Origin: Candidatus Anstonellales archaeon
GTDB lineage: Archaea; Micrarchaeota; Micrarchaeia; Anstonellales; J096
Length of the DNA: 64,000 nt
Direction of reading: 5' to 3'
Assembly: GCA_038890615.1 (NCBI GenBank)
Contig: JAWAFI010000001.1
Location: 465,536 to 529,535, forward strand
The notes beneath the pieces are model-generated. The model worked only from the letters and a program-made list of their open reading frames with translations. It ran no database searches and was not told the origin of the DNA. The translations under genes and the position numbers were made by a program. Of the stretch, positions 31,654-64,000 are shown piece by piece. Each line of letters begins with the position of its first letter. The first letter of the stretch is position 1.

Positions 31654-31705
31654 GGAAATTCCATAAGGGCTAACTTTAAATACTTTGCCTGTGCTTTCTC
31701 TATTG
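31654..31705. promoter_or_regulatory. Short divergent promoter region between leuS and the six-gene membrane operon (TATA-like ctttaaatac at about 31672-31681)
   Basis: The A/T box lies about 26 nt upstream of the ATG at 31706, consistent with a leaderless transcript. The listed ORF start at 31685 is a TTG inside this box. Confidence 0.35.
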
Positions 31706-32941
31706 ATGCCTTTGCTTATGCAGGCGCTTGCGCCTCCGATTAACGAAGTTACAATTGCAGCGTTCCTGCTATCTTTCTCAATAGTGGTCGCTTACTACCT
31801 TCTAGACAAGGCATGGGAGGCTTTAAGAGGGGGAGCAGGAGCTACCTCTCCATTTACTATACCTGCCAAGAGGGAGATGAATGAATTCTTCGTAACGGTG
31901 CTCATATTCGCATTCTTCAGCATCTTGGTCTTCCTGATGGATACTGTTGTTTCTGCTTTTGTATGCGGCTCAACCACCGGCTGCAATGTGATAGAGATTG
32001 CGCATTTCTATTTGATAAGGCTTCAGGCGCTCCTTGTTAGCCAGTTCACCATAACATACCTTACTGAAACTGTTTTCGGCTTCTTTGGCTACTTAGGAGT
32101 AGGCGGCAAGCCAGACATCCTTTCATTTGTGCCATTTGGCTACAACTTAGCCCCTTTTGCTCCTCTTGGGCTCCCAACAAGCCTCCTGCTTAGGATAATA
32201 GATTTAATAGAAATGGAGCTTGGGGCAACGGTTACTAAGGTTATACTGCTTTACATAATATCCTTTGCAGTTCCTTACCACTTGCTTCCTTTGGGGTTCT
32301 TCATGCGTGCAATACCCTTTACAAGGAAAACAGGGAGCATGGTAATAGCTCTTTGCATCTCTGCGTATTTCGTATACCCTTTCAGCGTAATATACGGAAC
32401 TTCGCTGGTTGTTGACTATATGAATGCAGAATCTCCATCAACGCTTTACCAAATATACGATGCTACTGCAAGCATGATGGGCAGCTTTCTCAATCTTTTC
32501 TCAGGATGGACTTATAATACAGAGTTCTTCACTTCGCTAAACACCAACATAAAAGCATGGGAAGGGGCGCTTCAGGATTATGGAAATGCAATAACTAACC
32601 CTGCTGACCCTGTTGGGAGCAGGGAAGGGGGGCTTGCAACAAAATACCAGCTTGAGTACGAAGACAAGCTTGGCGCTGCAGCAAGCGACCCTGCTTACTC
32701 AATAGGGATAGGGGTTTTAGGCCTTTTCCTTTCAATCCTCGCCAGGCCACTCTTAGTGGTTGAGCTTGTAACAGGGTTCTACAGGATGGTGGTGGTGCTG
32801 GGTATATACACCGCTCTCCAGTTTACAGGTGTGGTTGCGAGCACCTTTTTCGAGATTGTGCTTACAATAACTGCTTTCAGGGCAATCTCAGAGCTTCTCA
32901 GCGGAGAGATGGCGCTTTTTGGGATGGGGAGGCTGACTTGA
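31706..32941 (+). CDS. Paralogous polytopic membrane protein, member 1 of 6 (uncharacterised family)
   Basis: It is multi-TM. It has the shared loop motif LLPLGFFMRAIPFTRKTGSMVIALCISAYFVYPF and the C-terminal tail ...GMGRLT. Its stop is fused to the next start (TGAATG). Confidence 0.6.
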   Translation: MPLLMQALAPPINEVTIAAFLLSFSIVVAYYLLDKAWEALRGGAGATSPFTIPAKREMNEFFVTVLIFAFFSILVFLMDTVVSAFVCGSTTGCNVIEIAHFYLIRLQALLVSQFTITYLTETVFGFFGYLGVGGKPDILSFVPFGYNLAPFAPLGLPTSLLLRIIDLIEMELGATVTKVILLYIISFAVPYHLLPLGFFMRAIPFTRKTGSMVIALCISAYFVYPFSVIYGTSLVVDYMNAESPSTLYQIYDATASMMGSFLNLFSGWTYNTEFFTSLNTNIKAWEGALQDYGNAITNPADPVGSREGGLATKYQLEYEDKLGAAASDPAYSIGIGVLGLFLSILARPLLVVELVTGFYRMVVVLGIYTALQFTGVVASTFFEIVLTITAFRAISELLSGEMALFGMGRLT

Positions 32942-33925
32942 ATGTTCGAGGTTTTCATCGCAGCAGCAGCGCTCCTGATGGTTGCATACATAGCAGTGCT
33001 CTACATGGCTGGCTCCTTTATGCAGAAGCCAGAATGGCACGCAATGGCAAAGGACCAGCTAAGGGAGCTTTTCCTAGCCTGCCTAATAACTATGTCAGCA
33101 GGCGCCATGATATCAATATGCAACTACCTTGGGATAATATGGCTCCAAAGCTACTTCCCTAGCTACTCCATAGTGCAGAATGACCTTGGCAAGACAACCT
33201 CTGCCCAGCTTGAGCAAATAATATTCAAATCCCTCATACCTATGATAGCGCGCATAGGTAGCATAGACATGCTCACTACAACCGCATCAAGCTACTATGC
33301 AGCAGCAGGCCCGGGAAAGTGGAGGTTTGACTTCAAGGTTTTCAATGCAGCAGGGGACAGGTTCCTGCAGATAATAGGTATACTTGAGTTCACTCTTTCA
33401 ATAACGCTTGCAAGCCTTTTCATACAATCAGCAGTTCTTGACATGGCTTACCAGGTTTCAATGGAGATAATGCTCCCTTTGGGTGCTGTGCTGTTGTTCT
33501 TCCCAGTGCTAAGGAAGTCAGGGAAATTTATAGTAGCATTAGCAATAGCGTATGGCTTCTTTGCGCCATTCATATACAGCATGACGCTTGCATCCATAGG
33601 GGATTTTTTCGCAATGAAGTCAGCTTCGAGCCCTGCAATCAATATACCATTCATAGGAGCATATGACTTTTGGGACATCTACTCAACCCCATTTATAAGG
33701 ATAAGTGAGCCCTTCCTGATTTTTCTCCCAACAGGCCATGTTTTTGTGCTTGTATACTCAAACCTGTTCGCAGAAGCCGGAAAAGTGCTTTTCATAACAG
33801 TGCTTTGCCCTGCCTTGGTTTCAATAATAACAGTTTCAACAATAAGGCCGCTTGCTGATTTCATAGAGGCGCAGTCGTTTTTGATAGACACAAGGATGAT
33901 ATCTGGGCCAAGCATAGGTGGTTGA
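32942..33925 (+). CDS. Paralogous polytopic membrane protein, member 2 of 6
   Basis: It has the motif MLPLGAVLLFFPVLRKSGKFIVALAIAYGFFAPF and the tail ...SGPSIGG. It is translationally coupled on both sides. Confidence 0.6.
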   Translation: MFEVFIAAAALLMVAYIAVLYMAGSFMQKPEWHAMAKDQLRELFLACLITMSAGAMISICNYLGIIWLQSYFPSYSIVQNDLGKTTSAQLEQIIFKSLIPMIARIGSIDMLTTTASSYYAAAGPGKWRFDFKVFNAAGDRFLQIIGILEFTLSITLASLFIQSAVLDMAYQVSMEIMLPLGAVLLFFPVLRKSGKFIVALAIAYGFFAPFIYSMTLASIGDFFAMKSASSPAINIPFIGAYDFWDIYSTPFIRISEPFLIFLPTGHVFVLVYSNLFAEAGKVLFITVLCPALVSIITVSTIRPLADFIEAQSFLIDTRMISGPSIGG

Positions 33926-35185
33926 ATGCCAGCGCAGCCGTACATTGAATTTGTTTTGCAGGCATACCAGAACTACCTGCCTTTAGCCCCTCCTTTGATC
34001 CTCCTGTCGCTTGGGCTCATAGCGCTTACCCAAGCAGTAGGGAGGTTCTTGAACATGAACCAGCTCATTGTGTGGGGCAAGCTTGAGCTTTTTGAGCTTT
34101 TCTTCTCTGCTTTTATACTCCTCATATTCCCATTTGCCCTTGGCTCCATGAATGAGATAGCAGCTACGGTAATTACTTCTCTTCCATATGGGCCAGACAT
34201 ATGCCCAAATGCCCAGCAGGCAACAATACCCTGCCACATAGCTTATGCAAAGCAGTTCCTGAATTCAATGTTCATAGAGCTCGACTATGTAATTTTCAGG
34301 CAGCTTGCTTGGTATTCTGTTATAAGCTTGCTCACAAACACAGAGATTTCCTTGGAGGTTGGGATGATATCAAAGCCATGGGCGCCTTTCATGATTTTCC
34401 ATGCCAAAGAGCTAATAATAAGGGACACAGTGCAGCATATGTTTACATTCATGCTGGCTTTAAAGGTCATTGAGAACACCTTTGCTTTCATATCCCTTTT
34501 CTTTTTCCCGCTAATGCTCATAGGTGGGGTTTTGCTCAGGATACTAAAGTATACAAGGAGGCTTGGTGGCCTGCTAATAGCAATAGCGCTGGTGTCGCAT
34601 TACATAACCCCAATACCTTTCATAGTGGGCGGCATGCTTTACAACCAGTACAGGATAGACCAAGGCTTGCCGTACAGTGACTTAAAACCAGTGCTCTACA
34701 AAGCCAAAACAACCTCTTCCACAGGGGTGCCGGCAATACTTGACTTAAAAGACAATGACATTTATGATAGCTGGAAGAAAAGCTACGAGTCGCAATCGCA
34801 GGGCCAGGCGATTGATTACACAACAAGCAATATGCAATACCAGCTTAAAGATAATTTGGTCATAGAGCCATACGTTGACCCACATGATGCTTCTTCAGTG
34901 TCTTCAGGAATAGCATCATTTCTACTTGAAGCAATTTCATTCACAAAATACCTGAGCTTGTACGTTTTCACAGCAGGCTTCGGGCAGGGCGAATCTATAG
35001 TAGACTTCATATATGGGATTGACTTAGTTAAAAAAGGAGGCGCCCTTGATGTAAGCGGTACAGTGCTGGCGTATGTTTTCTTCTTTACATTCATTTCACT
35101 ACTCTCATCAATAGCTGCAGTAAGGAGCCTTTCAGAGACATTTGGCGGGGATTCAGAGATAGCAGGGCTTACGAGGCTGATATGA
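33926..35185 (+). CDS. Paralogous polytopic membrane protein, member 3 of 6
   Basis: It has the motif FFPLMLIGGVLLRILKYTRRLGGLLIAIALVSHYITPIPF and the tail ...GLTRLI. Its stop overlaps the next start (ATGA). Confidence 0.6.
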   Translation: MPAQPYIEFVLQAYQNYLPLAPPLILLSLGLIALTQAVGRFLNMNQLIVWGKLELFELFFSAFILLIFPFALGSMNEIAATVITSLPYGPDICPNAQQATIPCHIAYAKQFLNSMFIELDYVIFRQLAWYSVISLLTNTEISLEVGMISKPWAPFMIFHAKELIIRDTVQHMFTFMLALKVIENTFAFISLFFFPLMLIGGVLLRILKYTRRLGGLLIAIALVSHYITPIPFIVGGMLYNQYRIDQGLPYSDLKPVLYKAKTTSSTGVPAILDLKDNDIYDSWKKSYESQSQGQAIDYTTSNMQYQLKDNLVIEPYVDPHDASSVSSGIASFLLEAISFTKYLSLYVFTAGFGQGESIVDFIYGIDLVKKGGALDVSGTVLAYVFFFTFISLLSSIAAVRSLSETFGGDSEIAGLTRLI

Positions 35186-36369
35186 TGAGGCTAATGCACC
35201 TAATCCTCCTTCTTCTCTTGCCTGCCCTCTCAGCACAGCAGACAAACAACATACAAGAAATAACATCAAGCACCATTGATGAGAAGGCATGGAGCCAAAC
35301 AATAGAGAGCCACTTGCTTCTCCAGATAATAACAAACAACTGCCAGGCAGGGCCGAGCCTTGACATGCACAGCCAATTCTTGACGCTTTCAGCAGCTGTT
35401 TTGATCACTATGCTTTCGCTGCTAATATTCCTATACTTGCTCTCTTACATAACCGATTCTGTTACAATCAGGAGCGTTGTGCAGTACGAGTTTTACTCTG
35501 TGTTCATGACAACCTTCCTCCTTTTCGCCCTTCTTGAAGTCCTTTACCTTACAATCAACCCGGTTTATGAGAAGCTTGGCATACAGGAGAAGGCATTCAG
35601 CTACTCCAACAAGATAGTTGTGAGGCTTTTCACTACGCTTGGCGCTTTCAGCGGCACCTCTTTAGTGTTAAGCGCAATAGAATCCTTAAGGATAAGCATA
35701 AGCTTCAGGATTGTGCCTTTCTCTTTCTCAGCATCTTCATTCGTGAAGCCCATGACTGACTCTGTTGGCTTCATATCCCAGCTAACCAGCTTGGCAGTTA
35801 CAGAATGGCTTGTCAAGGCAGCGCTGCTGTGCCTGATGTTCAATTACTCTTTCCCTCTGCTCATACCCATTGGGCTCTTCCTTAGGGCCATACCAATATT
35901 CAGGGGGGCAGGCAACTCAATAATAGCAGCATCACTTGGGTTCTTCTTCATATTCCCGCTTCTTCTTGCAGTAAACGATGACATAGATGCCAAGATGTCG
36001 CTTATACTGCGCGAGAGGGAGACAATGGACAGGGCAGTGGCAGTAGTAAAGGATGTCGCAGGGGATTCTGCATTCTCAGTAAACAACGCAACAGGGGAGG
36101 AGCTTTCTGGCTGGCTGGAGAAACTCTACAACCTGCTTTTCAGGGCTATATTTTTCCCTTCGCAGCAAACTCCTATCGACCAAGGGGGCATATGGCTCTG
36201 GGAAAAGGTGTTCTACCCTCTTTTCATACTGCGCTTTGTGTATTACTTCTTTGTTCTCAGCGCCATATTCCCGTTTATAAACATTTCAGTGCTAATAGCT
36301 GCAATAAAGGAGATAGGCCAGTGGCTTGATGCTGATGTAAAGCTTGATGTTTTCATGAGGTTGATATAG
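35182..36369 (+). CDS. Paralogous polytopic membrane protein, member 4 of 6 (has cleavable-looking signal peptide)
   Basis: It has the N-terminus MMRLMHLILLLLLPALSAQQ, the motif LLIPIGLFLRAIPIFRGAGNSIIAASLGFFFIFPLL, and the tail ...VFMRLI. Confidence 0.6.
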   Translation: MMRLMHLILLLLLPALSAQQTNNIQEITSSTIDEKAWSQTIESHLLLQIITNNCQAGPSLDMHSQFLTLSAAVLITMLSLLIFLYLLSYITDSVTIRSVVQYEFYSVFMTTFLLFALLEVLYLTINPVYEKLGIQEKAFSYSNKIVVRLFTTLGAFSGTSLVLSAIESLRISISFRIVPFSFSASSFVKPMTDSVGFISQLTSLAVTEWLVKAALLCLMFNYSFPLLIPIGLFLRAIPIFRGAGNSIIAASLGFFFIFPLLLAVNDDIDAKMSLILRERETMDRAVAVVKDVAGDSAFSVNNATGEELSGWLEKLYNLLFRAIFFPSQQTPIDQGGIWLWEKVFYPLFILRFVYYFFVLSAIFPFINISVLIAAIKEIGQWLDADVKLDVFMRLI

Positions 36370-37593
36370 ATGGCATCGCTTGCAGAATTACAAGGCACTT
36401 TGCTTGCCCAGCTCATGCCTGCCTATGCAGCCCTCTACAATTACGAGCCGCTTGCTCAGTCGCAGGTATGCGGCGACCCTGCTGGCTTTGTGAATTCCCT
36501 TATGCCCCCTGTTGGGGAGGTCCTGCTCCTTTCAGTGGCTATAATTGTTTTCCTATACCTGCTTTCAAGGATCCTGGCAAACCCAATGCTGGAATCATAC
36601 GTGAAGCTTGAGCTCCAAGAGATTCTCATAACCTGCCTTATATTCATATTCTTTGGGCTGATGATACCTATCCCATGCGTTCCTGCATCTTTCCTTAGCG
36701 TGCCCCCGGCTTATTCATCGAACACAATGATTCTTGATGGAGCTGTCTACCTTTCAGAGGTAGGGTCAAACTACCTGCTGCTCGGCTACTTCTTCTCAAC
36801 GCTTATGTATTACATAATATCCTTTTACTCTGTAATAATAAACGCTGCGCCCCTTGTTGGGACAGTAGTTGCGCCATTGCAGGGGCTTTCAGCAGTAATA
36901 TCCCCTGTGTTCTCAACAGTTGCCACTACCTTAGGCACTGGCGTAGTAATAAACTTCGCCTACCTGCTATTCTATGATTTCATGACCTACTCTTTCTTGA
37001 AGGCAATGCTACCTATAGGGCTCTTGCTGAGGTGCTTCACGATCACAAAGAAGGCAGGGAGCGCAATAATAGCGCTCTGCCTTTCATTCTATGTGCTGTT
37101 CCCATTCCTGCTTACTTTGGAGCATTCCATTGTAATGAACTCAGGCTATGGAAATTCATTAAACATGATACTTAGGAACGTCTGGTCAACTACTAAATAT
37201 GTAAGTGATGCAATAATACCCGGCCCATCTAAGCTTGAGCCAGGAGAGGAGCTTAAAGAATGGATAGAAAAAGGCGCCAATCCAATAATCTATGGCCTTG
37301 GGACCGCTCCTTTCCTTGCGACATTTGTTTTCCAGTTTGTTGCTGCCCTTGGCTTTATGCCAATAACAAAGCTGATAGCCCCTGCAGTGCTTGGCCAATG
37401 GATGGCATCAATAGTTGCAATACCTGCGCACATGATTGCTGCGGAGATGCTTATAACCACTTCAGTGTACGTTTTCATCAACTCAGTGATATTCCCTGCA
37501 CTAAACACGCTCGTGCTCGTTGGCGCTGCGGCATCCTTTGCCCAGCTGCTAGGAGTTCAGCTTGATGTTTCAAACCTTACGAGGCTGATATGA
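36370..37593 (+). CDS. Paralogous polytopic membrane protein, member 5 of 6
   Basis: It has the motif MLPIGLLLRCFTITKKAGSAIIALCLSFYVLFPFL and the tail ...SNLTRLI. It overlaps the next start by ATGA. Confidence 0.6.
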   Translation: MASLAELQGTLLAQLMPAYAALYNYEPLAQSQVCGDPAGFVNSLMPPVGEVLLLSVAIIVFLYLLSRILANPMLESYVKLELQEILITCLIFIFFGLMIPIPCVPASFLSVPPAYSSNTMILDGAVYLSEVGSNYLLLGYFFSTLMYYIISFYSVIINAAPLVGTVVAPLQGLSAVISPVFSTVATTLGTGVVINFAYLLFYDFMTYSFLKAMLPIGLLLRCFTITKKAGSAIIALCLSFYVLFPFLLTLEHSIVMNSGYGNSLNMILRNVWSTTKYVSDAIIPGPSKLEPGEELKEWIEKGANPIIYGLGTAPFLATFVFQFVAALGFMPITKLIAPAVLGQWMASIVAIPAHMIAAEMLITTSVYVFINSVIFPALNTLVLVGAAASFAQLLGVQLDVSNLTRLI

Positions 37594-38573
37594 TGCTGAT
37601 GATCTGGCTCAACATTTCGATTGCAATAATAGCGACGATTTTCATAGCCTCCCTCTTAGTATATATGATAGGGAAGGGGTTTATGATCCCCCAGCTGGAG
37701 TCCATTGCAAAGAAGGAAATGATATATGTGGTCTCCACTGTGCTCCTGCTCATATTCATAGAGTTGCTAGTGGTAGAGCTTGAAGGAATGCTAGTGGCAA
37801 TAATGGAGCCATACATAACACAGCTTCTTGCTGTATACGGCCAGCCAGCCCCTTCAGGCCAGCTTACGCTCATAGACATGAGCATAATGTTTATGGGAGG
37901 CCCATACAACTGCCTTGTGACTAAAATACTTCCGCCAGTGGCAGCGCTTGCATCCGACTTAAGCACAATATTCAAGGCAAAGGTTGAGGTTCCAATGCCC
38001 AACCCAAGCGGCTTTGGCGGGGTGGGGAACATCCTTGACCTCCTAAATTACTTCATAGGTGCATCTGTTGTTTTTGTTCTTGCTTATTTCTTCCTTACAA
38101 ACCTATTGCTGCTTTTCAAGCACCTTTCACTTCCATTGTTCATCCCGCTTGGCATAATATTAAGGGCATTTTCACCTACAAGGGGAGCAGGTGCATACAT
38201 ACTTGCCTTTTCAATAGTAGGTTACTTTGTAATGCCTCTTACGTACTCCATAATTTCCCTTATATTGGGGATTTCTTTTGGCGCAGCAGGGATTTGCCAG
38301 CCAATAGACATACCACCCTACCTCCTTATGACGCTGAATTCAGGCAGCCCGCAGACAGAAGCAGAGCAGATGGCCATAAGGACTCTCCAGTCATCAGGGG
38401 TGATGAGCAATGTGGCAGATTCAATAGATAAGATAATAATGGGGCTCTTCATGTACCTCTGCTCAATACCTTTCATAACCCTTACCGTAGGTCTTACAAC
38501 AGTCCTTTTCCTTTCTGCTGTGTTTGGGATAAACCTGCCTGAGGTAGGAAGGGGGCTAGTGAAGCTTATTTGA
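37590..38573 (+). CDS. Paralogous polytopic membrane protein, member 6 of 6
   Basis: It has the motif FIPLGIILRAFSPTRGAGAYILAFSIVGYFVMPL and the tail ...RGLVKLI. It ends 59 nt before the tuf start. Confidence 0.6.
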   Translation: MMLMIWLNISIAIIATIFIASLLVYMIGKGFMIPQLESIAKKEMIYVVSTVLLLIFIELLVVELEGMLVAIMEPYITQLLAVYGQPAPSGQLTLIDMSIMFMGGPYNCLVTKILPPVAALASDLSTIFKAKVEVPMPNPSGFGGVGNILDLLNYFIGASVVFVLAYFFLTNLLLLFKHLSLPLFIPLGIILRAFSPTRGAGAYILAFSIVGYFVMPLTYSIISLILGISFGAAGICQPIDIPPYLLMTLNSGSPQTEAEQMAIRTLQSSGVMSNVADSIDKIIMGLFMYLCSIPFITLTVGLTTVLFLSAVFGINLPEVGRGLVKLI

Positions 38574-39908: not shown

Positions 39909-40214
39909 ATGAGCCAGGCAAGGATACTCCTTACAGGAGAGAGCCCAAAAGACATTGAGAGCGTAATATCCCAGATAGTTGAGATAGCAAAGGCCCTTGA
40001 CATGAAAGTCAAGGGCCCTGTCGCGCTTCCAAGGAAGAAGCTTAAAATTGTGACAAGGAGGACTCCTTGCGGTGACGGCTCAGACACCTACGAGACATGG
40101 GAGAAGAGGCTTTCCAAAAGGTTCATAGATGTAGAAGGAAGCGAGAAGGTAATAAAGCAGATACTCAGGGTTAAGGTGCCAGAGGGCGTTTTCGTAAAGA
40201 TACTGCTTAAATAA
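39909..40214 (+). CDS. rps10: 30S ribosomal protein S10 (uS10)
   Basis: RILLTGESPKDIESVISQIVEIAKALDMKVKGPVALPRKKLKIVTRRTPCGDG is the S10 signature. tuf-rps10 gene order is conserved. Confidence 0.9.
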   Translation: MSQARILLTGESPKDIESVISQIVEIAKALDMKVKGPVALPRKKLKIVTRRTPCGDGSDTYETWEKRLSKRFIDVEGSEKVIKQILRVKVPEGVFVKILLK

Positions 40215-40423
40215 ATTGCTCTCTTCTTGTTTTCTCCCAGGTTTTCAAGAAGTCCTTAAATCGCTTTTTGTCAGTTTCTTTCCAAGGAGCCAGATCAACT
40301 GCATCATATAAGCTCACACCTTTTTCTTCAGCTATTTCTGTTAGCTTTGCAAATGCCTGGCCTGGGGGATTGCACAATATACCGACAACATAGATTTATT
40401 AATATTAAGCTTTAATCAAATAT

Positions 40424-41215
40424 ATGGGTATTTTTTGGAAAAAAAATAAGAAAGAGGAAAATCAAAAGCCAAGAAGGAAACCTTTCAATACCTTTCAGGT
40501 TTCAGAGAAAATCCCTACAGAAGAAGAACTCAAAGAGGAATTTAGGGGGCTTTACAGCTTTATACTACTAGAAAGAGTTAGGGCTAGAAATTTGTCAGAT
40601 CCAGCTGTAACAAAGGAAGCAATTGAGAGGGCAAGGGAAGGAATAGAAAACTTCCCTTCTTCAGAATCATCCGCTAAGCACATCTCATCTTCATTCAAGC
40701 TGCTTTATGAATATACTGAGAAACTCCCTCACTATCTTTCCAATGCTGATTTGCTTGCCATCTTAAGCTGCATCTTGGCTTACAAAAAACACCTATTATC
40801 CTCAGATAATGGCGAAGAGCACAAAAAAGTTATTTCTTTGATAGAGCTTATTCTCAAAAGGATGGGCAAATTGTTTTTAGAAAGAAGCAAAGATTGGAAG
40901 CTAACAAGGAGGATAGGGCAAAATCCTGACATAGAAAAGGTGAATAAATTGCTTTCTTGCCAACTTGAGCTTATTCCTCAGAAAAGCATGCCTACTGACT
41001 TTAATGTAAGCAAACAAAACTTAGAGAAGGTTTTTGGTGCGCTTGAGCGCTCAGCAGAGATATCAGCTCAGCTGCTAAGCATGCCAGAAGAAGAGCTAAG
41101 CAAGGACAGCAAAGGATATGGGGAATCATTAGGCCTTATTTCAGAAATATTTTTAAGGGCCTCCAATGCCTTTTCTCGGTATAAAATATCTGAGGTAATC
41201 CAAAAGCATTTTTAA
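40424..41215 (+). CDS. Hypothetical alpha-helical protein, 263 aa, in a visibly AT-richer block
   Basis: It is a long ORF with no recognisable domain. A sharp drop in GC is visible from about 40230 to about 41230. Confidence 0.4.
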   Translation: MGIFWKKNKKEENQKPRRKPFNTFQVSEKIPTEEELKEEFRGLYSFILLERVRARNLSDPAVTKEAIERAREGIENFPSSESSAKHISSSFKLLYEYTEKLPHYLSNADLLAILSCILAYKKHLLSSDNGEEHKKVISLIELILKRMGKLFLERSKDWKLTRRIGQNPDIEKVNKLLSCQLELIPQKSMPTDFNVSKQNLEKVFGALERSAEISAQLLSMPEEELSKDSKGYGESLGLISEIFLRASNAFSRYKISEVIQKHF

Positions 41216-41246
41216 CCTTGCTTTCTTAACTAAAACGGGTGGTTTT

Positions 41247-41408
41247 ATGGAGAAGGTGTATGGAAAGCTAATCTTCAACGATGGCAACAATATCTCTATG
41301 CGCGAAGGGGAGATATCCTTTGGCAACGAAGCCTTCGTTAAAGTAGAATCCAACGGAAAGGTTGAGTGGATAAACACCCGCTCTGTTGTAAGGATAGAAA
41401 AGCTCTAA
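41247..41408 (+). CDS. Small hypothetical protein (53 aa), not in ORF track
   Basis: Own translation: MEKVYGKLIFNDGNNISMREGEISFGNEAFVKVESNGKVEWINTRSVVRIEKL. An SD-like gggtgg sits 5 nt upstream. Confidence 0.3.
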   Translation: MEKVYGKLIFNDGNNISMREGEISFGNEAFVKVESNGKVEWINTRSVVRIEKL

Positions 41409-57930: not shown

Positions 57931-58941
57931 TTGGAGGGCTCAGGGAAAGCTGGCTATAAAATATGCGAGAGGCTTTATGGGGATAAAGCTGAATTTATAT
58001 GCGGAGGGCTCTTTTCAGGTGTTGAGCAAAAATTGGATGCTTTGCTAAGAAGCATTGATTTTGAATGGAGCTCCTTCAACTTTGAGACCATAATACCTAA
58101 CTCAGTAATGATTAAAGAGGAGGAATTCTTGCATATTTCAAAAAAGAGCATAAAGGCTGAGCTCAACGAATACATCTCTTCGCTTATAGAGGAAAAAGCA
58201 GGGAAGGAAAGGAGTATAGAGATGCCTGATGTCTTCCTATCCCTCAATTTTAGGAATGGCAGGTTTAAGGCAAGGCCTGCGCCTCTTTACATCTTTGGCA
58301 GGTATAAAAAAGAGGCAGGGATTGCTCAAAGCAGATGGATTTCCCCTGATGGGAGCTATAAACACCCTTCTGTAGAAGAATTAGTAGGGGAAAGGGCTAA
58401 GGTGCTATTCAATGGCAAGGGATACAAGCTCCATGCTTCTGGAAGGGAGGACATAGATGCTAGGAACACAGCAGGTAGGCCTTTTGTGCTTGAGTTGAGT
58501 GAAGCACGCAAAAGGAAGAATCCAGAGATGCTTAATGGGGTGTTTGGTGGGGTTGAAATATCTGACGCAAAGTTCCTGCCGTTCAGCGCAGTAACCCTTG
58601 TTTCTGATTCCCACTTTGACAAAACATACAAGGCAAAGCTAGACCAGAGCGTTGAGCCATTTTCCTTTGAGAACATAGCCATAGCCCAAAAGACTCCAGA
58701 AAGGGTGAAGCATAGGAGGGCTGACATCATAAGGGAGAGGGTTGTGTTCAATGCCCGCTCGGTTGGGCCTGATGAGGTTGAGATAACAGCAGAGGCAGGC
58801 ACTTACATAAAAGAATTCATAAGCGGGGACGGGGGGCGCACAACACCCTCCCTATCCGAGCTTCTCGGCAGGCAGCTAAGGTGCACTGCGCTTGAGGTTG
58901 TGCGCATAGAAGATGATTTCCTAAGGCACTTGGGGCTTTGA
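57931..58941 (+). CDS. pus10: tRNA pseudouridine synthase Pus10 (archaeal Psi54/55)
   Basis: It has an N-terminal Cys pair (CERLYGDKAEFIC) THUMP-like region and a catalytic core GREDIDARNTAGRPFVLEL typical of Pus10. Confidence 0.7.
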   Translation: MEGSGKAGYKICERLYGDKAEFICGGLFSGVEQKLDALLRSIDFEWSSFNFETIIPNSVMIKEEEFLHISKKSIKAELNEYISSLIEEKAGKERSIEMPDVFLSLNFRNGRFKARPAPLYIFGRYKKEAGIAQSRWISPDGSYKHPSVEELVGERAKVLFNGKGYKLHASGREDIDARNTAGRPFVLELSEARKRKNPEMLNGVFGGVEISDAKFLPFSAVTLVSDSHFDKTYKAKLDQSVEPFSFENIAIAQKTPERVKHRRADIIRERVVFNARSVGPDEVEITAEAGTYIKEFISGDGGRTTPSLSELLGRQLRCTALEVVRIEDDFLRHLGL

Positions 58942-58983
58942 TTCCTGCGAAGCTATTTAAACACCCTCTAACAAAATCCTAAC

Positions 58984-59802
58984 ATGCTTGACATACTTAT
59001 ACAACATGTGGCGATGCCTTTCGAGGAGGTAAGAATAGTGCTTTCCCTGCTCATGATAGGGGCAGGGGCCTACTTTGACATAAAGCAGGATAGGGAGATA
59101 CCTGACATGCTTGTGTACGGCTCGTTGGCTGTTTCAGCCCTAATGGCCTTGCTCCTTCCTTTTGAGCTTCTTTTATATGCAGCAGTTGTTGCCTTGCTGG
59201 TTGGGGTTTTTGGCTACATGGCTTATAAATCAGGGCAGCTTGGAAGCGCTGATGTCTTGATGTTTGTTGCGCTCTGCCTTATGCTTCCAATACATCCTTC
59301 ATTCCTAAGCATGCCTGTCAACGTGCCATTCTTTTTCAGCGCATACATTTTCGCAAGCGTGCTTTTCATACTTTATCAGTTAATTTCAATAGTCCCAGTA
59401 ATATTAGAAGATCCTTCTAATGCAAAAAAGGAGGCTCTTATAATCCTAGTACCATACCTAATCTTCGTTTATTTCTACTTCACGACCCCAATATTCTCAT
59501 TTGCCTACTTCATGCTTTTTACCTTGGTAGTGCTCTTTGCAGTGTTCTTCTATGCCTACAAGGACCAGATAATGAAATCCTTTGTTGTTGAAATACCGCT
59601 GAGTAAGGCAGAGGAAGAGGTTGCTGCAGCAGAATACCTAAGCGTAAAGGTGAACAGGGTGATAACAAAGGATGATATAGAGCTCCTGAAGAAGAAAAGG
59701 ATAAAGAAAGTGAAGATATACAAGTATGCGCCTTTCCTTCCCTTCCTTTTTGCAGGCGTGGTGCTTGGCCTCCTAATAAGTCCTCTTTCCTTCATGTATT
59801 AA
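58984..59802 (+). CDS. Type IV prepilin / preflagellin peptidase (A24 family) with C-terminal soluble extension
   Basis: The first catalytic Asp is in GAGAYFDIKQDREIPD and the second in GQLGSADVLMF (G-x-G-D-V/A-K/L-like). It is polytopic and has a C-terminal lysine-rich domain. Confidence 0.65.
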   Translation: MLDILIQHVAMPFEEVRIVLSLLMIGAGAYFDIKQDREIPDMLVYGSLAVSALMALLLPFELLLYAAVVALLVGVFGYMAYKSGQLGSADVLMFVALCLMLPIHPSFLSMPVNVPFFFSAYIFASVLFILYQLISIVPVILEDPSNAKKEALIILVPYLIFVYFYFTTPIFSFAYFMLFTLVVLFAVFFYAYKDQIMKSFVVEIPLSKAEEEVAAAEYLSVKVNRVITKDDIELLKKKRIKKVKIYKYAPFLPFLFAGVVLGLLISPLSFMY

Positions 59803-59857
59803 GCAAGCTTACCCACCCTGCTATGCACCACATTTTTAACCTTTTCCTTATAAAATT

Positions 59858-62119
59858 ATGGCAGCTTTGTTTAAGATGGGGTGGTTGGCAATCTCATTAT
59901 TGCTCCTCATAGGCTCTGCGAACAGCAGCGGCTGTACTATAAGCCCAAGCTCTGCATCTCTCTTTTATGGAGAAACCAAAGAATTTAGCATAACGTGCTC
60001 AGCAGGTGATTGCAGCAGCGTGCTTTCTGAGCCCTTCACAATAGAAACACCCCATTCATTTTCCGCTCGCCTTATCATACCATACGGTAAGTTCTCCCTT
60101 ACAACCTCTCCAACAGGCCAAGGAGAGGATTCTGGCATAGTGAAAGCAAAAGCAACTGCCGAGAACGGCTCAGCAGTGGAATGCACTGCCAACGTTTCAA
60201 TAACCGACACAAAAAACATAACGTGCAGCCTATACGATTTATGGCTCAGCAAAGGAGTAACTACAACAGAAGAGGTTCAATGTTTTGAGTGCATTGCTGG
60301 CCAATGCCGCCCTGTTTTTGGCGGCTGCCAAGAGGCAGTTTCAAAGCCTTTTGCATGGGTCATTAAGCCCAACTCTAATGGAATATCATTAACACCACTC
60401 GACAACTACAATACAGAGGTTGAGATTACTGCAACAGAGGACGTAGGGGAGGATAGGATAATTGAGGCGAGCAGCAGGGACATAGACAACAACTTAGTGT
60501 CATGCTCAGCAACGATACACCAGTACAGGGAGAGAGTTGAGAAGTGCATGGTTATGCCCATCTCCTACTCCTTGCTTTCCCAAACCCCTTCTGTAACCTA
60601 TGGAACAAGATGCGTTGATCCCTCTGGGCTTATAAAAGAGTGCGATAAAGGCCACAGCATAAGGGCAATAGGCCTTTCTTCCCAAAGCTCCCAGCAGATA
60701 ACGCTGCCGTTGGTTGAGCTGAACAAAAGGCCGATAGGGGGCTATCTTATAGTTGCAGAAGATGGAGAATGCTCCTCTTACTTCCATCCTATAATAGCTG
60801 CACCTTTGCCCAACCTAAAGTTCAAGCCGCAATGCACAAAGGACGAGGATTGCAGCAAAGGCAAATGCATTGACGGACTCTGCAGGTTTGAGCAGTGCAG
60901 CATCAAGCCAATAGAAAGGGGCTCTGTAAAATTCTGCTACGAGCAAGAAGGATGCACTCCTACAATCCATTCTTCAACCATGGATAAATTTCTCATGGTT
61001 CCTCTATTTTACACAATAAAGGGCGACAAAGTTTACATCTTAGAAGTTGGTGGTGGTCCACAATCGCGCATAGGTGTTATGGACATATCAGACCCAGCCA
61101 ACCCTAAGCTCCTTTATCAAACCTCACTGCTTAGCTGCGGGGATAGTAAAACGATGGTTGGAATGAGTAGTGTCTCAAATGATAATAAGATAGCTTTTTT
61201 CAATAGGTGTGGCAATCATATAATGATTTATGATACAAGCTCATTTAGAGAATGTGCAGGGGCTCTTCTTGGTCTAATAGTTAGGCCTGAGATCGTAAAA
61301 CTTCAATCAGGAAGATACATATTTGGAGACCTTTTTTACCTTTCAGCTAATGATGAGGCTATACAAGATATGGAGAAGATAGGTATAGATTATGATTATT
61401 GTAGGCCTACATCAATATTTTCAAGCTCAGGCGGTCCAACTAGTTCATCACCAAAGACAGAATCACCAGGGGCTATTGATATAAAGCGGCCACCATATGG
61501 CATGGTAAGAGCATTTGAATATAATGGGCGCACTTACCTCCTTGCACTTGCTTATTCTAATTCTCGTAATGATCCAGATGCAGATGGAGCTATAGGGCTT
61601 TACGATATAACAGATTTTTCCCCATTTTCTAACTCACCGCATCTAGGAATAATAAAAATTTTTGACAAAAAAGAATTCAAGATGGTTGCTACTACTGCAT
61701 CAGCTGTGCGTGATGGAAAGATTTATGTAATGGCCCAAAAACAGCAAGGTGATTATGGTTATAGGCTTTATGTGTTTGACATGAATGGCAATGAATTGGC
61801 TGGCTCCTTAGATTATTGGGATAGCATTCCGTATCTGTTAAGTGTAGATAGCAAATATGCTTATGTATCTTTTATAAGTTCAATACCCATAAAAATAATT
61901 GAATTGGAAACTATGAAGACCATTCCTCTTCCAGATAGATTTGCTCAACACGCTGTACAGGAAGGCTATACTCCCTCTATTACTTATTACCTTATAGGTA
62001 GAGAAAAGAACAACAAGCACTATTTCTTAGTGCCTATATTTTATAAAAATAATGATGGCACACTCTTCTCTACTGTATACACCTCTTTTGAGCTGGTTGA
62101 GGAATGCATTTACATTTAA
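59858..62119 (+). CDS. Large Cys-rich secreted protein (753 aa) with C-terminal beta-propeller-like (LVIVD-like) repeats
   Basis: It has the signal MAALFKMGWLAISLLLLIGSANSSG, 40+ Cys, and repeats such as GGGPQSRIGVMDISDPANPKLLY. The 3' half is visibly AT-rich. Confidence 0.5.
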   Translation: MAALFKMGWLAISLLLLIGSANSSGCTISPSSASLFYGETKEFSITCSAGDCSSVLSEPFTIETPHSFSARLIIPYGKFSLTTSPTGQGEDSGIVKAKATAENGSAVECTANVSITDTKNITCSLYDLWLSKGVTTTEEVQCFECIAGQCRPVFGGCQEAVSKPFAWVIKPNSNGISLTPLDNYNTEVEITATEDVGEDRIIEASSRDIDNNLVSCSATIHQYRERVEKCMVMPISYSLLSQTPSVTYGTRCVDPSGLIKECDKGHSIRAIGLSSQSSQQITLPLVELNKRPIGGYLIVAEDGECSSYFHPIIAAPLPNLKFKPQCTKDEDCSKGKCIDGLCRFEQCSIKPIERGSVKFCYEQEGCTPTIHSSTMDKFLMVPLFYTIKGDKVYILEVGGGPQSRIGVMDISDPANPKLLYQTSLLSCGDSKTMVGMSSVSNDNKIAFFNRCGNHIMIYDTSSFRECAGALLGLIVRPEIVKLQSGRYIFGDLFYLSANDEAIQDMEKIGIDYDYCRPTSIFSSSGGPTSSSPKTESPGAIDIKRPPYGMVRAFEYNGRTYLLALAYSNSRNDPDADGAIGLYDITDFSPFSNSPHLGIIKIFDKKEFKMVATTASAVRDGKIYVMAQKQQGDYGYRLYVFDMNGNELAGSLDYWDSIPYLLSVDSKYAYVSFISSIPIKIIELETMKTIPLPDRFAQHAVQEGYTPSITYYLIGREKNNKHYFLVPIFYKNNDGTLFSTVYTSFELVEECIYI

Positions 62120-62451
62120 GTGAGCACTGGCATCAACCCCTTCAGCCCTTTTTAAACAAAGCAATTCAAAAGATTAAGGCGATCAGCATGATAGAGGACG
62201 AGCTTGTTCATTGGTGGAAGGACGAGCAGGGAGGATACAAGAAAACCTTTGTTAGGATAGAGAGCGACCCCCCACGGGAAGAGAATGGGTTTCCTAGGGA
62301 TGGATTCATCTACTTAAAAGTTGTCAATGGTGAGCAATCAGCATTCATAAAGCTCAGCGTCGGCGAAGCCCTGTACCTTTCAGCCCAGCTTGAGCACATT
62401 TCGAAGATGATGCTCTACCAGAAGAGGCAGCTTTGGAATTCAAAGTTTTAG
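62104..62451 (+). CDS. Hypothetical protein (weak; overlaps convergent ncsA 3' end)
   Basis: It is a 115-aa ORF with no recognisable domain. Confidence 0.25.
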   Translation: MHLHLSEHWHQPLQPFLNKAIQKIKAISMIEDELVHWWKDEQGGYKKTFVRIESDPPREENGFPRDGFIYLKVVNGEQSAFIKLSVGEALYLSAQLEHISKMMLYQKRQLWNSKF

Positions 62452-63325
62452 TCATTTTGCAGAACATACAGAGCTCATTGTTGGTCGGCTCGCCGCATTT
62501 TTTGCATTTTGAGATGCTTGAATGCTCAGTTGGCTTCATCCGTTCAGCTATGCTCTCAAATGATCGTGCCATCCTTAGCTTTGTGCCAGGGAATTTTTCC
62601 TCAAGCCTGTTTAGCTCCTCCCTTATGTACTTTCGCATCCCCAAATATGAGTATGGGCATTCTGCAAGGTGGCACTCAATGCCCTTGACCAAGGCGTATA
62701 TTGCTACCTCCCTTTCAGGAATGTTCATTAATGGCCTTATGCGCGGTATGAAGCCTTCATCACTTACTGAAGGGTAAAAGAAGCGCACTGCCCTGTCTGG
62801 CTCGTTCCTCGTAAGGTTTAGCATCAGCGTCTGCACAACATCATCAAGGTTGTGGCCTATTGCTATCTTCGTTGCCCCAATTTCCTTTGCTCCTTTGTTT
62901 AAGAGATATCTCCTCACAACCCCGCAGTAGGAACACGCTTCCTTGTACCTCTGGTCCACTGTCTCTGCAAAGCTGCTTGCCTTTATTATTTTCAGCGTGA
63001 CCCCTATCCTCCTGCATAGCTTCCTAAGCTCTGCAATGCTCTTGTCTCTATAGCCCTTTATACCTTCGTCAATGCATAGCGCAACAACCTCAAAAGGCAT
63101 TTTTTTGGTGAGCTTCTTAAGGATGTAAAGCATTACTGAGCTGTCCTTCCCTCCAGAAACGCCTACAGCTACTATATCACCTTTCCTTATCATTGAATGC
63201 TCCCGGATAGTGCTGAAAACCCTTTTTTCAAAATAACCAGTAAAATGCCTCTCGCAAAGGCTTTGCCCTGTGTAAAGAAGGTTTATTATTGCCCTTTTCC
63301 CGCACCTTGAGCACTCAGCCACCAT
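62354..63325 (-). CDS. ncsA: tRNA 2-thiolation protein NcsA/TtuA (PP-loop ATPase with zinc fingers)
   Basis: It has N-terminal CSRCGK...C..H, PP-loop GVSGGKDSS, the internal CSYCG and C-terminal CKKCGE...CMFC zinc fingers. Confidence 0.85.
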   Translation of the reverse strand: MVAECSRCGKRAIINLLYTGQSLCERHFTGYFEKRVFSTIREHSMIRKGDIVAVGVSGGKDSSVMLYILKKLTKKMPFEVVALCIDEGIKGYRDKSIAELRKLCRRIGVTLKIIKASSFAETVDQRYKEACSYCGVVRRYLLNKGAKEIGATKIAIGHNLDDVVQTLMLNLTRNEPDRAVRFFYPSVSDEGFIPRIRPLMNIPEREVAIYALVKGIECHLAECPYSYLGMRKYIREELNRLEEKFPGTKLRMARSFESIAERMKPTEHSSISKCKKCGEPTNNELCMFCKMTKTLNSKAASSGRASSSKCAQAGLKGTGLRRR

Positions 63326-63503
63326 AAACCACCTTGATTATCTCAACCTTATCCCCTTCACCAACCTTCTCATCATCTGTGGCTAATTTTCCATTGACCT
63401 TGACTATGTGCTCCTCCCTACTAAGCCCTAACTTCTGCATCAGCTGGAGCACGCTTCCCCTGAACCTCAGCTTCCTTTTCTTTCCGTCAACACTGGCAAT
63501 CAT
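63315..63503 (-). CDS. ThiS/MoaD-like ubiquitin-fold sulfur-carrier protein (SAMP/TtuB-like) ending in Gly-Gly
   Basis: It is 62 aa with the beta-grasp pattern and C-terminal ...KVVYGG. It lies immediately upstream of ncsA and is translationally overlapped with it. Confidence 0.7.
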   Translation of the reverse strand: MIASVDGKKRKLRFRGSVLQLMQKLGLSREEHIVKVNGKLATDDEKVGEGDKVEIIKVVYGG

Positions 63504-63537
63504 AACCCTTTTATTCCTATCAGTGTTTTAAATCCTT

Positions 63538-64000
63538 ATGAAAATTCTTGGAATTGCAGGAAGGGAGATAATCAATTCGAGGGGGAAAGCTGCTTTTGAG
63601 GCAGAGATAATTACAGATGAAGGCATTTTCAGGGGCGCAGCCCCAAGCGGGGCTTCAACAGGTAGGAATGAAGCAGTTGAGAAAAGGGATGGTGGCAGAA
63701 GATGGGCAGGCAGCGGCTTCATGGGCTCGCTTTCAAGGCTTAAGCAAATTGGCAAAAAGCTAGTTGGCAAGGAATTCAGGACTTTAAATGAGTTTGACAG
63801 CGCCCTCATAAAAATTGATGGCACAAAGGGCAAGTCAAGGCTGGGCTCTGAATTGACAACTGCGCTGTCAGCTGCATTCTTCAAGGCGCAATGCCCAAAG
63901 CCAAAAAAGATGCCGATACCTATGTTCAACATAATAAATGGAGGGGTGCATGGGGGGAGTGGGTTGGCAATACAGGAGTTCATGGCAGTGCCTCAGGAGA
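63538..64000 (+). CDS. eno: Enolase, 5' part (gene runs off window end)
   Basis: Own translation: MKILGIAGREIINSRGKAAFEAEIITDEGIFRGAAPSGASTGRNEAVEKRDGG... is the enolase N-terminal signature. It is absent from the ORF track because there is no in-window stop. Confidence 0.85.
   Translation, partial: MKILGIAGREIINSRGKAAFEAEIITDEGIFRGAAPSGASTGRNEAVEKRDGGRRWAGSGFMGSLSRLKQIGKKLVGKEFRTLNEFDSALIKIDGTKGKSRLGSELTTALSAAFFKAQCPKPKKMPIPMFNIINGGVHGGSGLAIQEFMAVPQE

Follow-up and report, generated by a model that had tools for sequence, protein, structure and literature searches.

Class III signal peptidases of the kind represented by FlaK (3S0X) and PibD/EppA (MEROPS A24B, PF01478) are polytopic aspartyl proteases with two catalytic aspartates, the second of which stands in a G-x-G/A-D motif. 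In the cultured micrarchaeon 'Ca. Mancarchaeum acidiphilum' Mia14, a single FlaK-like A24 peptidase (MIA14_0570) is unlinked to either of two type IV pilus loci (PMC5498576). Among surface proteins, the closest described comparisons for the protein discussed below are the LVIVD-repeat cell-surface proteins (Pfam PF08309; Adindla et al. 2004, PMC2447325) and modular adhesins, including Leptospira LigA with its Big domains, CARDB proteins and EA1-type S-layer proteins. The locus analysed here lies in a 64,000-nt stretch (the window) of a 558,628-bp contig from a metagenome-assembled genome (MAG) of a Candidatus Anstonellales archaeon (Micrarchaeota, DPANN), where the gene for a 272-aa peptidase is followed, on the same forward strand and after a gap of 55 nt, by a gene for a 753-aa protein. 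Their translations are identical to NCBI QW035_03010 (272 aa) and QW035_03015 (753 aa) of a Candidatus Anstonellales MAG. Both open reading frames (ORFs) that a first-pass annotation, made from the sequence by a model, had described within 58984-62119 are present (Table 1), and all four peptides quoted in it can be located: FDIKQDREIPD (residues 31-41) and GSADVLMF (87-94) in the peptidase, CTKDEDCSKGKCIDGLCRFEQC (326-347) and GGGPQSRIGVMDISDPANPKLLY (398-420) in its neighbour. On balance, the evidence favours a FlaK-type peptidase standing beside an accessory gene to which it is unrelated, the latter of mosaic origin and encoding a probably adhesin-like surface protein.

The 753-aa protein (working name P0001; P0013-P0017 denote relatives and L-numbers related loci) has no Pfam or NCBIfam match, either whole or in pieces, and no more than four relatives emerged when 1.84 billion cluster representatives were searched exhaustively with HMMER. 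One of them, P0014 (757 aa), is homologous over its full length, with a colinear alignment across residues 14-724 (E=1e-70). In P0015 (563 aa), a counterpart of residues 23-317 stands behind two CARDB domains. The other two, P0016 and P0017, are true LVIVD-repeat proteins, in which Pfam recognises 5-6 repeats, and their matches are confined to residues 368-463 (phmmer E=6.8e-6 and 1.5e-4). This leaves P0014 and P0015 as the only two true homologs, that is, a family of three among ~15 billion proteins. Searches of GTDB representatives, JGI metagenomes and IMG/VR, including searches at the DNA level, revealed no further members; a word-indexed protein search, with the single sequence and with alignment A3, recovered only the query itself; and P0015 could be matched to no contig.

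The signal peptide proposed by the first-pass annotation is borne out as a Sec-type leader. All three family members begin with a hydrophobic stretch ending in small residues, and a class III motif is absent from each. The N-terminus MAALFKMGWLAISLLLLIGSANSS shows no [KR][GA] junction before the hydrophobic stretch and the ORF was not flagged by a FlaFind-like scan, so that the leader does not qualify as a class III signal peptide. The cysteine count given earlier, more than 40, has to be lowered to 26 (3.5% of residues), of which 24 lie within residues 1-515. Twelve are invariant across the 753-aa protein, P0014 and P0015, a pattern that fits structural disulfides in an exported protein, and a C-terminal Glu-Cys is common to the 753-aa protein and P0014.

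Behind the leader, the protein appears to consist of three parts. Structure prediction with AlphaFold2 (AF2) was run with the single sequence, which gave a useless model at a predicted local distance difference test score (pLDDT) of 36, and with the three-sequence alignment, in which residues 25-222 form beta-sandwiches (pLDDT 65-88) and residues 229-310 are all beta (pLDDT 50-74). Foldseek comparison with the PDB yielded, at E=1e-7 to 1e-9 and over ~300-350 columns, tandem arrays of immunoglobulin (Ig)-like, cadherin and Big domains, including titin, NCAM Ig1-3, protocadherin EC1-4, LigA and the EA1 S-layer protein; the template-modelling scores of these matches are low, reflecting interdomain geometry and the unmodelled C-terminal half, and the matches speak to fold class only. 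At the level of fold class, the model supports a tandem array of Ig-like beta-sandwiches at residues 25-322. A search of the PDB with the single sequence gave nothing useful, and a BLAST self-comparison detected no significant repeats either among the three N-terminal modules or inside the C-terminal half. Since P0015 carries the N-terminal module separately, behind its CARDB domains, modules of this family can evidently be shuffled. The array is followed by seven cysteines within ~41 residues (positions 326-366), a segment resembling a cysteine knot, whose counterpart in P0014 gives only sub-threshold matches to DUF7107, Dickkopf_N and Squash.

For the C-terminal half, the first-pass annotation had proposed repeats resembling LVIVD-type propeller blades, of which one unit stands and the repetition does not. 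A repeat hidden Markov model (HMM) built from P0016 and P0017 detects a single LVIVD unit at residues 397-419 with 19.2 bits, where 200 shuffles reached no more than 5.0, together with three further sub-threshold fragments. The same unit is aligned in an hhalign profile comparison. The Pfam LVIVD model (PF08309) is silent on residues 365-753 even at E<=1. Both AF2 models arrange this half in strands in groups of ~four at pLDDT below 50, which is suggestive only. The idea of an LVIVD propeller is weakly supported by the sequence; sequence and model together make a strongly diverged propeller of this type the probable identity of residues 368-753, and with a single recognisable unit in place of tandem repeats the protein is not filed in PF08309. 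An apparent PDB match to the 'Pizza' designer propeller (E ~1e-3) was discarded, one segment of the third Ig-like module (residues 240-290) matching each of the identical blades with per-domain E of 24-44.

Compared with described LVIVD-repeat proteins, the 753-aa protein shares the phmmer matches over residues 368-463, one 23-residue unit on the consensus and a secreted or surface context. It differs in escaping the Pfam model, in retaining only one recognisable blade of a presumed 6-7, and in the fusion of its C-terminal domain to a family-specific Ig-like array and cysteine knot. With modular adhesins of the LigA, CARDB and EA1 types it has in common tandem beta-sandwich Foldseek matches, a signal peptide and an apparent organisation into stalk and head, and its relative P0015 contains two CARDB domains; in contrast to them it shows no sequence-level membership of the Big, CARDB, PKD or cadherin families, its conserved intradomain cysteines are unusual, and no anchoring signal was found. 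In sum, the large protein combines known fold types in a rare and sequence-novel way, and its mosaic composition is unusual. It would be Sec-exported and disulfide-stabilised, with an Ig-like stalk, a cysteine-knot linker and a propeller-like head. Direct support is limited to the stalk fold and the export signal. By analogy with cell-surface adhesins, which combine a stalk with a binding head, it may serve as an adhesin and would most likely bind the surface of a host or partner cell, a role that fits DPANN episymbiosis.

Comparison with the closest relative available places the 753-aa gene among accessory genes. L001, a 2.8-kb Logan contig whose peptidase is 82% identical to that of the window, shows the gene order Pus10, peptidase, 87-aa gene, TtuA and ThiS, and the large gene is absent. 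By BLASTN, positions 1-1372 of L001 correspond to window 58432-59804 and positions 1432-2830 to window 62177-63575, at a DNA identity of about 74-78%. In the junction alignment, the sequence 3' of the L001 peptidase stop codon is the sequence found 3' of the stop codon of the 753-aa gene, and the extra block (~59805-62122) can therefore be delimited as the 753-aa gene plus ~50 nt of upstream DNA. The 753-aa gene counts as accessory, since this genome carries it and the nearest sequenced relative lacks it at the corresponding site. The block includes a TATA-like motif, CATTTTTAACC, which, by the general features of archaeal promoters, is probably the gene's own promoter and would produce a near-leaderless mRNA. 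Scans for sigma-70 promoters and terminators gave counts near expectation and carry no meaning in an archaeon. The block junctions contain neither a tRNA nor an Rfam element. A 20-nt imperfect inverted repeat (59864-59883 and 62143-62162, 85% complementary) and a short T-TAAG common to both junctions were considered as traces of a mobile element and are not counted as evidence, both being short and one arm of the repeat lying in sequence that is also present at the empty site.

The most informative feature of the locus is a break in synonymous-site composition inside the 753-aa gene. The AT-richness of its second half, already remarked upon in the first-pass annotation, is real and largely synonymous: the GC contents at first, second and third codon positions (GC1, GC2 and GC3) are 0.448, 0.473 and 0.497 over codons 1-366, and 0.450, 0.385 and 0.292 over codons 367-753. 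The GC3 background of 55 window genes is 0.499 +/- 0.039, with a minimum of 0.448 for equal-sized windows in other genes, and positions 61101-62100 form the lowest-GC kilobase of the window (0.371 vs 0.457 +/- 0.022). A likelihood change-point test sets the break after codon 433 (~61157; support interval codons 350-457), at or just past the boundary between the cysteine knot and the C-terminal domain, with a log likelihood ratio (logLR) of 18.0; 2000 permutations reached at most 9.8, and the 13 other long genes at most 5.3. The AT-rich tract ends at the right edge of the insertion/deletion (indel) that separates the window from L001. Compared with eight neighbours in its own genome, the P0014 gene is shifted towards AT from end to end (GC3 0.371 vs 0.455-0.627). 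The 5' half of the 753-aa gene thus carries host-like codons, and the 3' half, which encodes the putative head, is AT-rich like the whole of the P0014 gene.

The simplest reading is a mosaic gene, and its likeliest history is that recombination near the domain boundary introduced or exchanged the 3' half, with an allele of lower GC content as the donor. A more specific and less probable reading is an exchange of domain cassettes, in which a resident Ig-like stalk with host-like codons would have been joined, through recombination at the boundary of the domains, to a new distal propeller head of lower-GC descent, P0015 then being another product of shuffling; that Micrarchaeota retarget adhesins in this way is a tentative proposal. 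The swapping of receptor-binding domains in phage tail fibres offers a parallel to the proposed exchange of heads. If the mosaic reading is true, the locus represents a testable case of the exchange of surface-recognition modules in episymbiotic archaea, whose host specificity is poorly understood; if it fails, the gene encodes one more lineage-specific DPANN surface protein.

Several observations weigh against the favoured reading as a whole. No donor of the AT-rich half was found by HMMER or in GTDB representatives, JGI metagenomes or IMG/VR, and the identity to P0014 is alike in both halves (~36% vs 30-34%), so that divergence lends no independent support to separate histories. The propeller fold of the C-terminal half is putative, with pLDDT below 50 in both models, no Pfam LVIVD match and one recognisable blade only, and the adhesin role is deduced from architecture alone. 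No anchor, whether a transmembrane segment, a lipobox or a PGF-CTERM-like signal, was found in the 753-aa protein, which may simply be released. The polarity of the indel could run either way, as a gain here or a loss in the L001 lineage, no outgroup sharing the downstream context, and since the L001 DNA is only ~75-78% identical the indel need not be recent. The peptidase taken alone falls 0.1 bit under the Pfam gathering threshold.

An intrinsic cause of the AT-rich 3' half is unlikely, even though parts of the same data speak for it. It would involve amino-acid composition, relaxed or altered selection on codons, or mutation biased locally in a rapidly evolving domain of an old, vertically inherited gene that was lost in the L001 lineage, a loss with which the indel polarity is compatible. 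The simultaneous drop in GC2, from 0.473 to 0.385, indicates that amino-acid content contributes, the identity to P0014 is similar in both halves, and the AT shift throughout the P0014 gene could make low GC a family trait. However, the main drop occurs at synonymous third positions with GC1 unchanged, the other long genes of the window contain no comparable internal break, and a family trait should include the N-terminal half, as it does in P0014, whereas here that half matches the host exactly.

Quite improbable is an assembly artefact, in which the contig would join reads of two populations inside the gene and the 753-aa ORF would be chimeric. The source is a metagenome-assembled genome, and the support interval of the break coincides in part with the best-conserved, LVIVD-like stretch, at which alleles could be switched during assembly. 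Yet the ORF is intact, the contig is 558 kb long, and both flanks are syntenic with a single contig, L001, so that the assembly would have had to switch twice within 2.3 kb. The first-pass annotation had itself raised fragmentary mis-assembly; P0014, an independent full-length homolog from an unrelated sample, is colinear and displays the same end-to-end architecture, including the C-terminal Glu-Cys.

Least credible, and largely refuted by the comparative data, is a functional unit in which the peptidase processes or is co-expressed with the 753-aa protein, for instance as a dedicated maturation protease for a non-pilin substrate: the shared strand and short gap, and the large Cys-rich secreted proteins encoded directly upstream of the peptidase in L011 and L087, favour it, but L001 has the peptidase alone, no P0001 homolog stands beside the peptidase in any of the 80 related loci listed, the P0014 gene adjoins RFC and XPF-type nuclease genes and no peptidase, P0001 shares no homology with the Cys-rich proteins of L011 and L087, the signal of the 753-aa protein is of Sec type, and its gene has a TATA-like motif of its own. 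The significance of the adjacency implied by the first-pass annotation is not supported, and the two genes are functionally unrelated neighbours brought together by an accident of gene gain or loss, not partners.

The favoured reading, a mosaic accessory gene beside an unrelated peptidase, leaves the latter to be considered in its own right. Judged by its sequence, the 272-aa protein truly belongs to the A24/GxGD aspartyl proteases and is of FlaK/PibD type, as the first-pass annotation had suggested from its Asp motifs, both of which hold family-invariant aspartates. On its own it scores 26.4 bits against PF01478 (E=9.8e-6; gathering cutoff 26.5), and 11 of 12 clear homologs match that model (best E=8.7e-14), which makes the family as a whole a member of A24. 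An alignment of 40 sequences contains only six invariant columns, D32, P40, G84, G87, D90 and P115. A profile of these 40 sequences, run against the whole PDB, had FlaK 3S0X of Methanococcus maripaludis as its sole match (E=7.2e-7, 32 bits), which a 12-sequence profile missed; the single-sequence PDB search gave nothing useful for the peptidase either. In the alignment with 3S0X, YyD-lf falls on VQDF and GqlGGADV on G-IGGGDG, placing D32 on chain residue D25 and D90 on chain residue D86. These, given a 7-residue tag offset, we take to be the native catalytic D18 and D79 of FlaK (Hu et al. 2011). An independent transitive route through the family member P0013 arrives at the same correspondence of aspartates (E=2e-5). 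A failure of the motifs to align with the catalytic aspartates of FlaK/PibD, named in the first-pass annotation as the outcome that would speak against it, was not observed.

The lysine-rich soluble extension described at the C-terminus is soluble and lysine-rich as stated; it is an internal domain (~residues 196-246) and not a tail, being followed by a hydrophobic helix at residues 247-272. PF06847, Arc_PepC_II ('Archaeal Peptidase A24 C-terminus Type II'), is matched by 6 of 12 homologs (best E=3.5e-5); the window peptidase itself falls short of E<=0.01 and aligns across the region apart from a short deletion, and conserved columns of the domain include E211, D212 and L235. A Kyte-Doolittle scan gives ~7 hydrophobic segments, and the terminal helix aligns weakly and non-significantly with the last helix of FlaK. 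The likeness to FlaK covers the aligned pairs D32/D18 and D90/D79 and, by prediction, a polytopic build and a soluble domain inserted before the last transmembrane helix. The differences are a very low sequence similarity, reaching 32 bits even with the larger profile; a second motif that is GSAD or GGAD in most members and not GGGD (G-S-A-D in the window peptidase, GGGD in P0013); a probable type II C-terminal domain (PF06847) in place of the PF06819 domain of FlaK; and a lack of adjacent archaellum or pilus genes, the neighbours often being Pus10, or a flippase and a family 2 glycosyltransferase (GT2).

In this Micrarchaeon, the 272-aa protein would act as the class III signal peptidase (prepilin peptidase), probably as a polytopic enzyme with D32 and D90 as its putative active site and the Arc_PepC_II domain probably placed between the membrane core and the last transmembrane helix, like the soluble domain of FlaK. 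It presumably trims the short leaders of type IV pilin-like proteins whose genes lie at other sites of the genome, and cleavage would take place at the cytoplasmic face of the membrane through the D32/D90 pair, as in FlaK, PibD and EppA. This outcome is an expected one, and it defines a Micrarchaeota-wide FlaK-like subfamily characterised by the GSAD/GGAD motif and the type II C-terminal domain. The frequent pairing of these peptidases with Pus10 or glycosylation genes, and not with pilus genes, should be useful for the annotation of DPANN genomes.

Relatives of the peptidase occur in at least 96 GTDB species-representative genomes, and the 80 loci listed, from which the neighbourhood counts are taken, are essentially all annotated as Micrarchaeota. 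In 28 of the related loci, among the matches listed, a Pus10 homolog lies directly upstream of the peptidase, as it does in the window; on the downstream side stand unrelated housekeeping genes, with CTP synthase, Hsp20, a CBS-domain protein and DNA polymerase B among the products encoded there. Of the flanking genes inspected, none was recognised as a pilus gene. Within the window, the first-pass statement that pilin, ATPase and platform genes are missing holds as far as the scans reach: a FlaFind-style scan revealed no pilin-like class III signal peptide, and hence no candidate substrate there, and no pilus ATPase or platform family was found in the ~27 ORFs scanned against Pfam, the remaining ORFs having been judged by eye. 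The lack of pilus genes around the window peptidase is unremarkable and the norm of the phylum, because none were recognised in the inspected loci either and the Mia14 enzyme, likened here by its gene context and its membership of the same phylum, also stands apart from its pilus loci.

Some arrangements around the peptidase recur. The Pus10-peptidase pair is found on one strand with gaps of ~30-45 nt in many Micrarchaeota, although a tRNA pseudouridine synthase and a membrane protease have no obvious functional connection. In ~35 Micrarchaeota species (L009-L061, e.g., L009 4281-8081), the peptidase has a Wzx-like flippase (~540 aa) on one side and a GT2 glycosyltransferase (~395 aa) on the other, with all three genes sharing a strand, a recurrent link to surface-glycan genes that the window does not show. 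L011 (2250-5954) and L087/L002 (L087 2806-5952) encode, immediately 5' of the peptidase, giant, mutually homologous secreted proteins (1234 aa with 42 Cys in L011, 1048 aa with 32 Cys in L087) built of repeated 'C...W..(I/L/T)PSNW' modules with no Pfam match on record. These were examined as possible relatives of the 753-aa protein and set aside, as they show no similarity to P0001 or to any window ORF, and the same is true of the other neighbours of distant peptidase homologs.

Table 1. Features of the peptidase locus and of its immediate neighbours (window coordinates).
Feature	Position	Strand	Evidence or remark
Pus10 tRNA pseudouridine synthase	57931-58941	+	Pfam Pus10_C E=2.3e-42; TIGR01213 211.9 bits
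A24 (GxGD) prepilin/preflagellin-type peptidase, 272 aa	58984-59802	+	subfamily almost confined to Micrarchaeota
Asp32 codon, predicted first catalytic aspartate, YFD motif	59077-59079	+	invariant in 40 sequences; aligned with FlaK
Asp90 codon, predicted second catalytic aspartate, G-S-A-D (GxGD variant)	59251-59253	+	invariant in 40 sequences; aligned with FlaK
Lysine-rich soluble domain, ~residues 196-246, probable Arc_PepC_II homolog	59569-59721	+	PF06847 matches of family members; conserved columns
Terminal hydrophobic helix of the peptidase, PFLPF motif	59722-59799	+	P250, F251 and P253 nearly invariant
2.3-kb block without counterpart in L001, containing only the 753-aa gene and its upstream region	59805-62122		BLASTN; junction alignment
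TATA-like motif CATTTTTAACC	59832-59842	+	~20-25 nt 5' of the ATG; read off the sequence
Gene for the 753-aa secreted, disulfide-rich putative surface protein (QW035_03015)	59858-62119	+	ORF; colinear with P0014
Sec-type signal peptide, ~residues 1-24, predicted cleavage site	59858-59929	+	sole hydrophobic segment, N-terminal
Three tandem Ig-like beta-sandwich modules (predicted), ~residues 25-322, with 12 invariant cysteines	59930-60823	+	AF2; Foldseek
Small cysteine-knot-like segment, ~residues 323-367, CTKDEDCSKGKCIDGLCRFEQC	60824-60958	+	7 Cys; conserved in P0014
Beta-rich C-terminal half, residues 368-753, AT-rich codons, probable degenerate LVIVD-type propeller	60959-62116	+	phmmer; AF2; GC3 0.292
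Single clear LVIVD-like blade, residues 397-419, GGGPQSRIGVMDISDPANPKLLY	61046-61114	+	home-built LVIVD HMM; hhalign
GC3 change-point support interval, codons 350-457	60908-61228	+	best after codon 433, ~61157
Conserved 87-aa gene	62188-62451	+	89.5% identical to L001 1443-1700; no Pfam match
TtuA-like tRNA 2-thiolation enzyme	62354-63325	-	Pfam ATP_bind_3, TtuA_LIM_N; syntenic in L001
ThiS/SAMP-like sulfur carrier	63315-63503	-	Pfam ThiS; syntenic in L001

The genes that surround the pair are archaeal housekeeping genes by Pfam, with TYW1, a metallophosphoesterase, Nop5 and Pus10 upstream, and the 87-aa gene, TtuA and the ThiS/SAMP-like protein on the downstream side. The start of the 87-aa gene and its upstream motif TTTTTAAA are kept in L001, and ~45% identical copies of the gene are present in L068 and L074. 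With the 3' end of TtuA, which is convergent to it, the gene shares ~98 nt, and a listed 115-aa ORF starting at 62104 is the same gene over-extended into the 753-aa gene.

Elsewhere in the window, positions 31685-38573 (+) contain six consecutive, tightly packed ORFs of 418, 327, 419, 395, 407 and 327 aa, each with 5-8 transmembrane-like segments and without a Pfam match even at E<=1. Five of the six are mutually paralogous (BLASTP E 1e-3 to 3e-12), and the third (33926-35185) has no BLASTP match to the other five; the ORFs form a tandem array, immediately 5' of the genes for EF-1alpha and S10, of polytopic membrane proteins from an uncharacterised family. The second-lowest GC tract of the window (40001-41400, ~0.38) includes a 263-aa ORF (40424-41215, +) with a GC3 of 0.375 and no Pfam match, which may be compositionally foreign. 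An 878-aa protein encoded at 14708-17344 (+) matches the S_layer_C 'outer domain' in its N-terminal part (E=2e-7) and is probably the S-layer protein of this Micrarchaeon.

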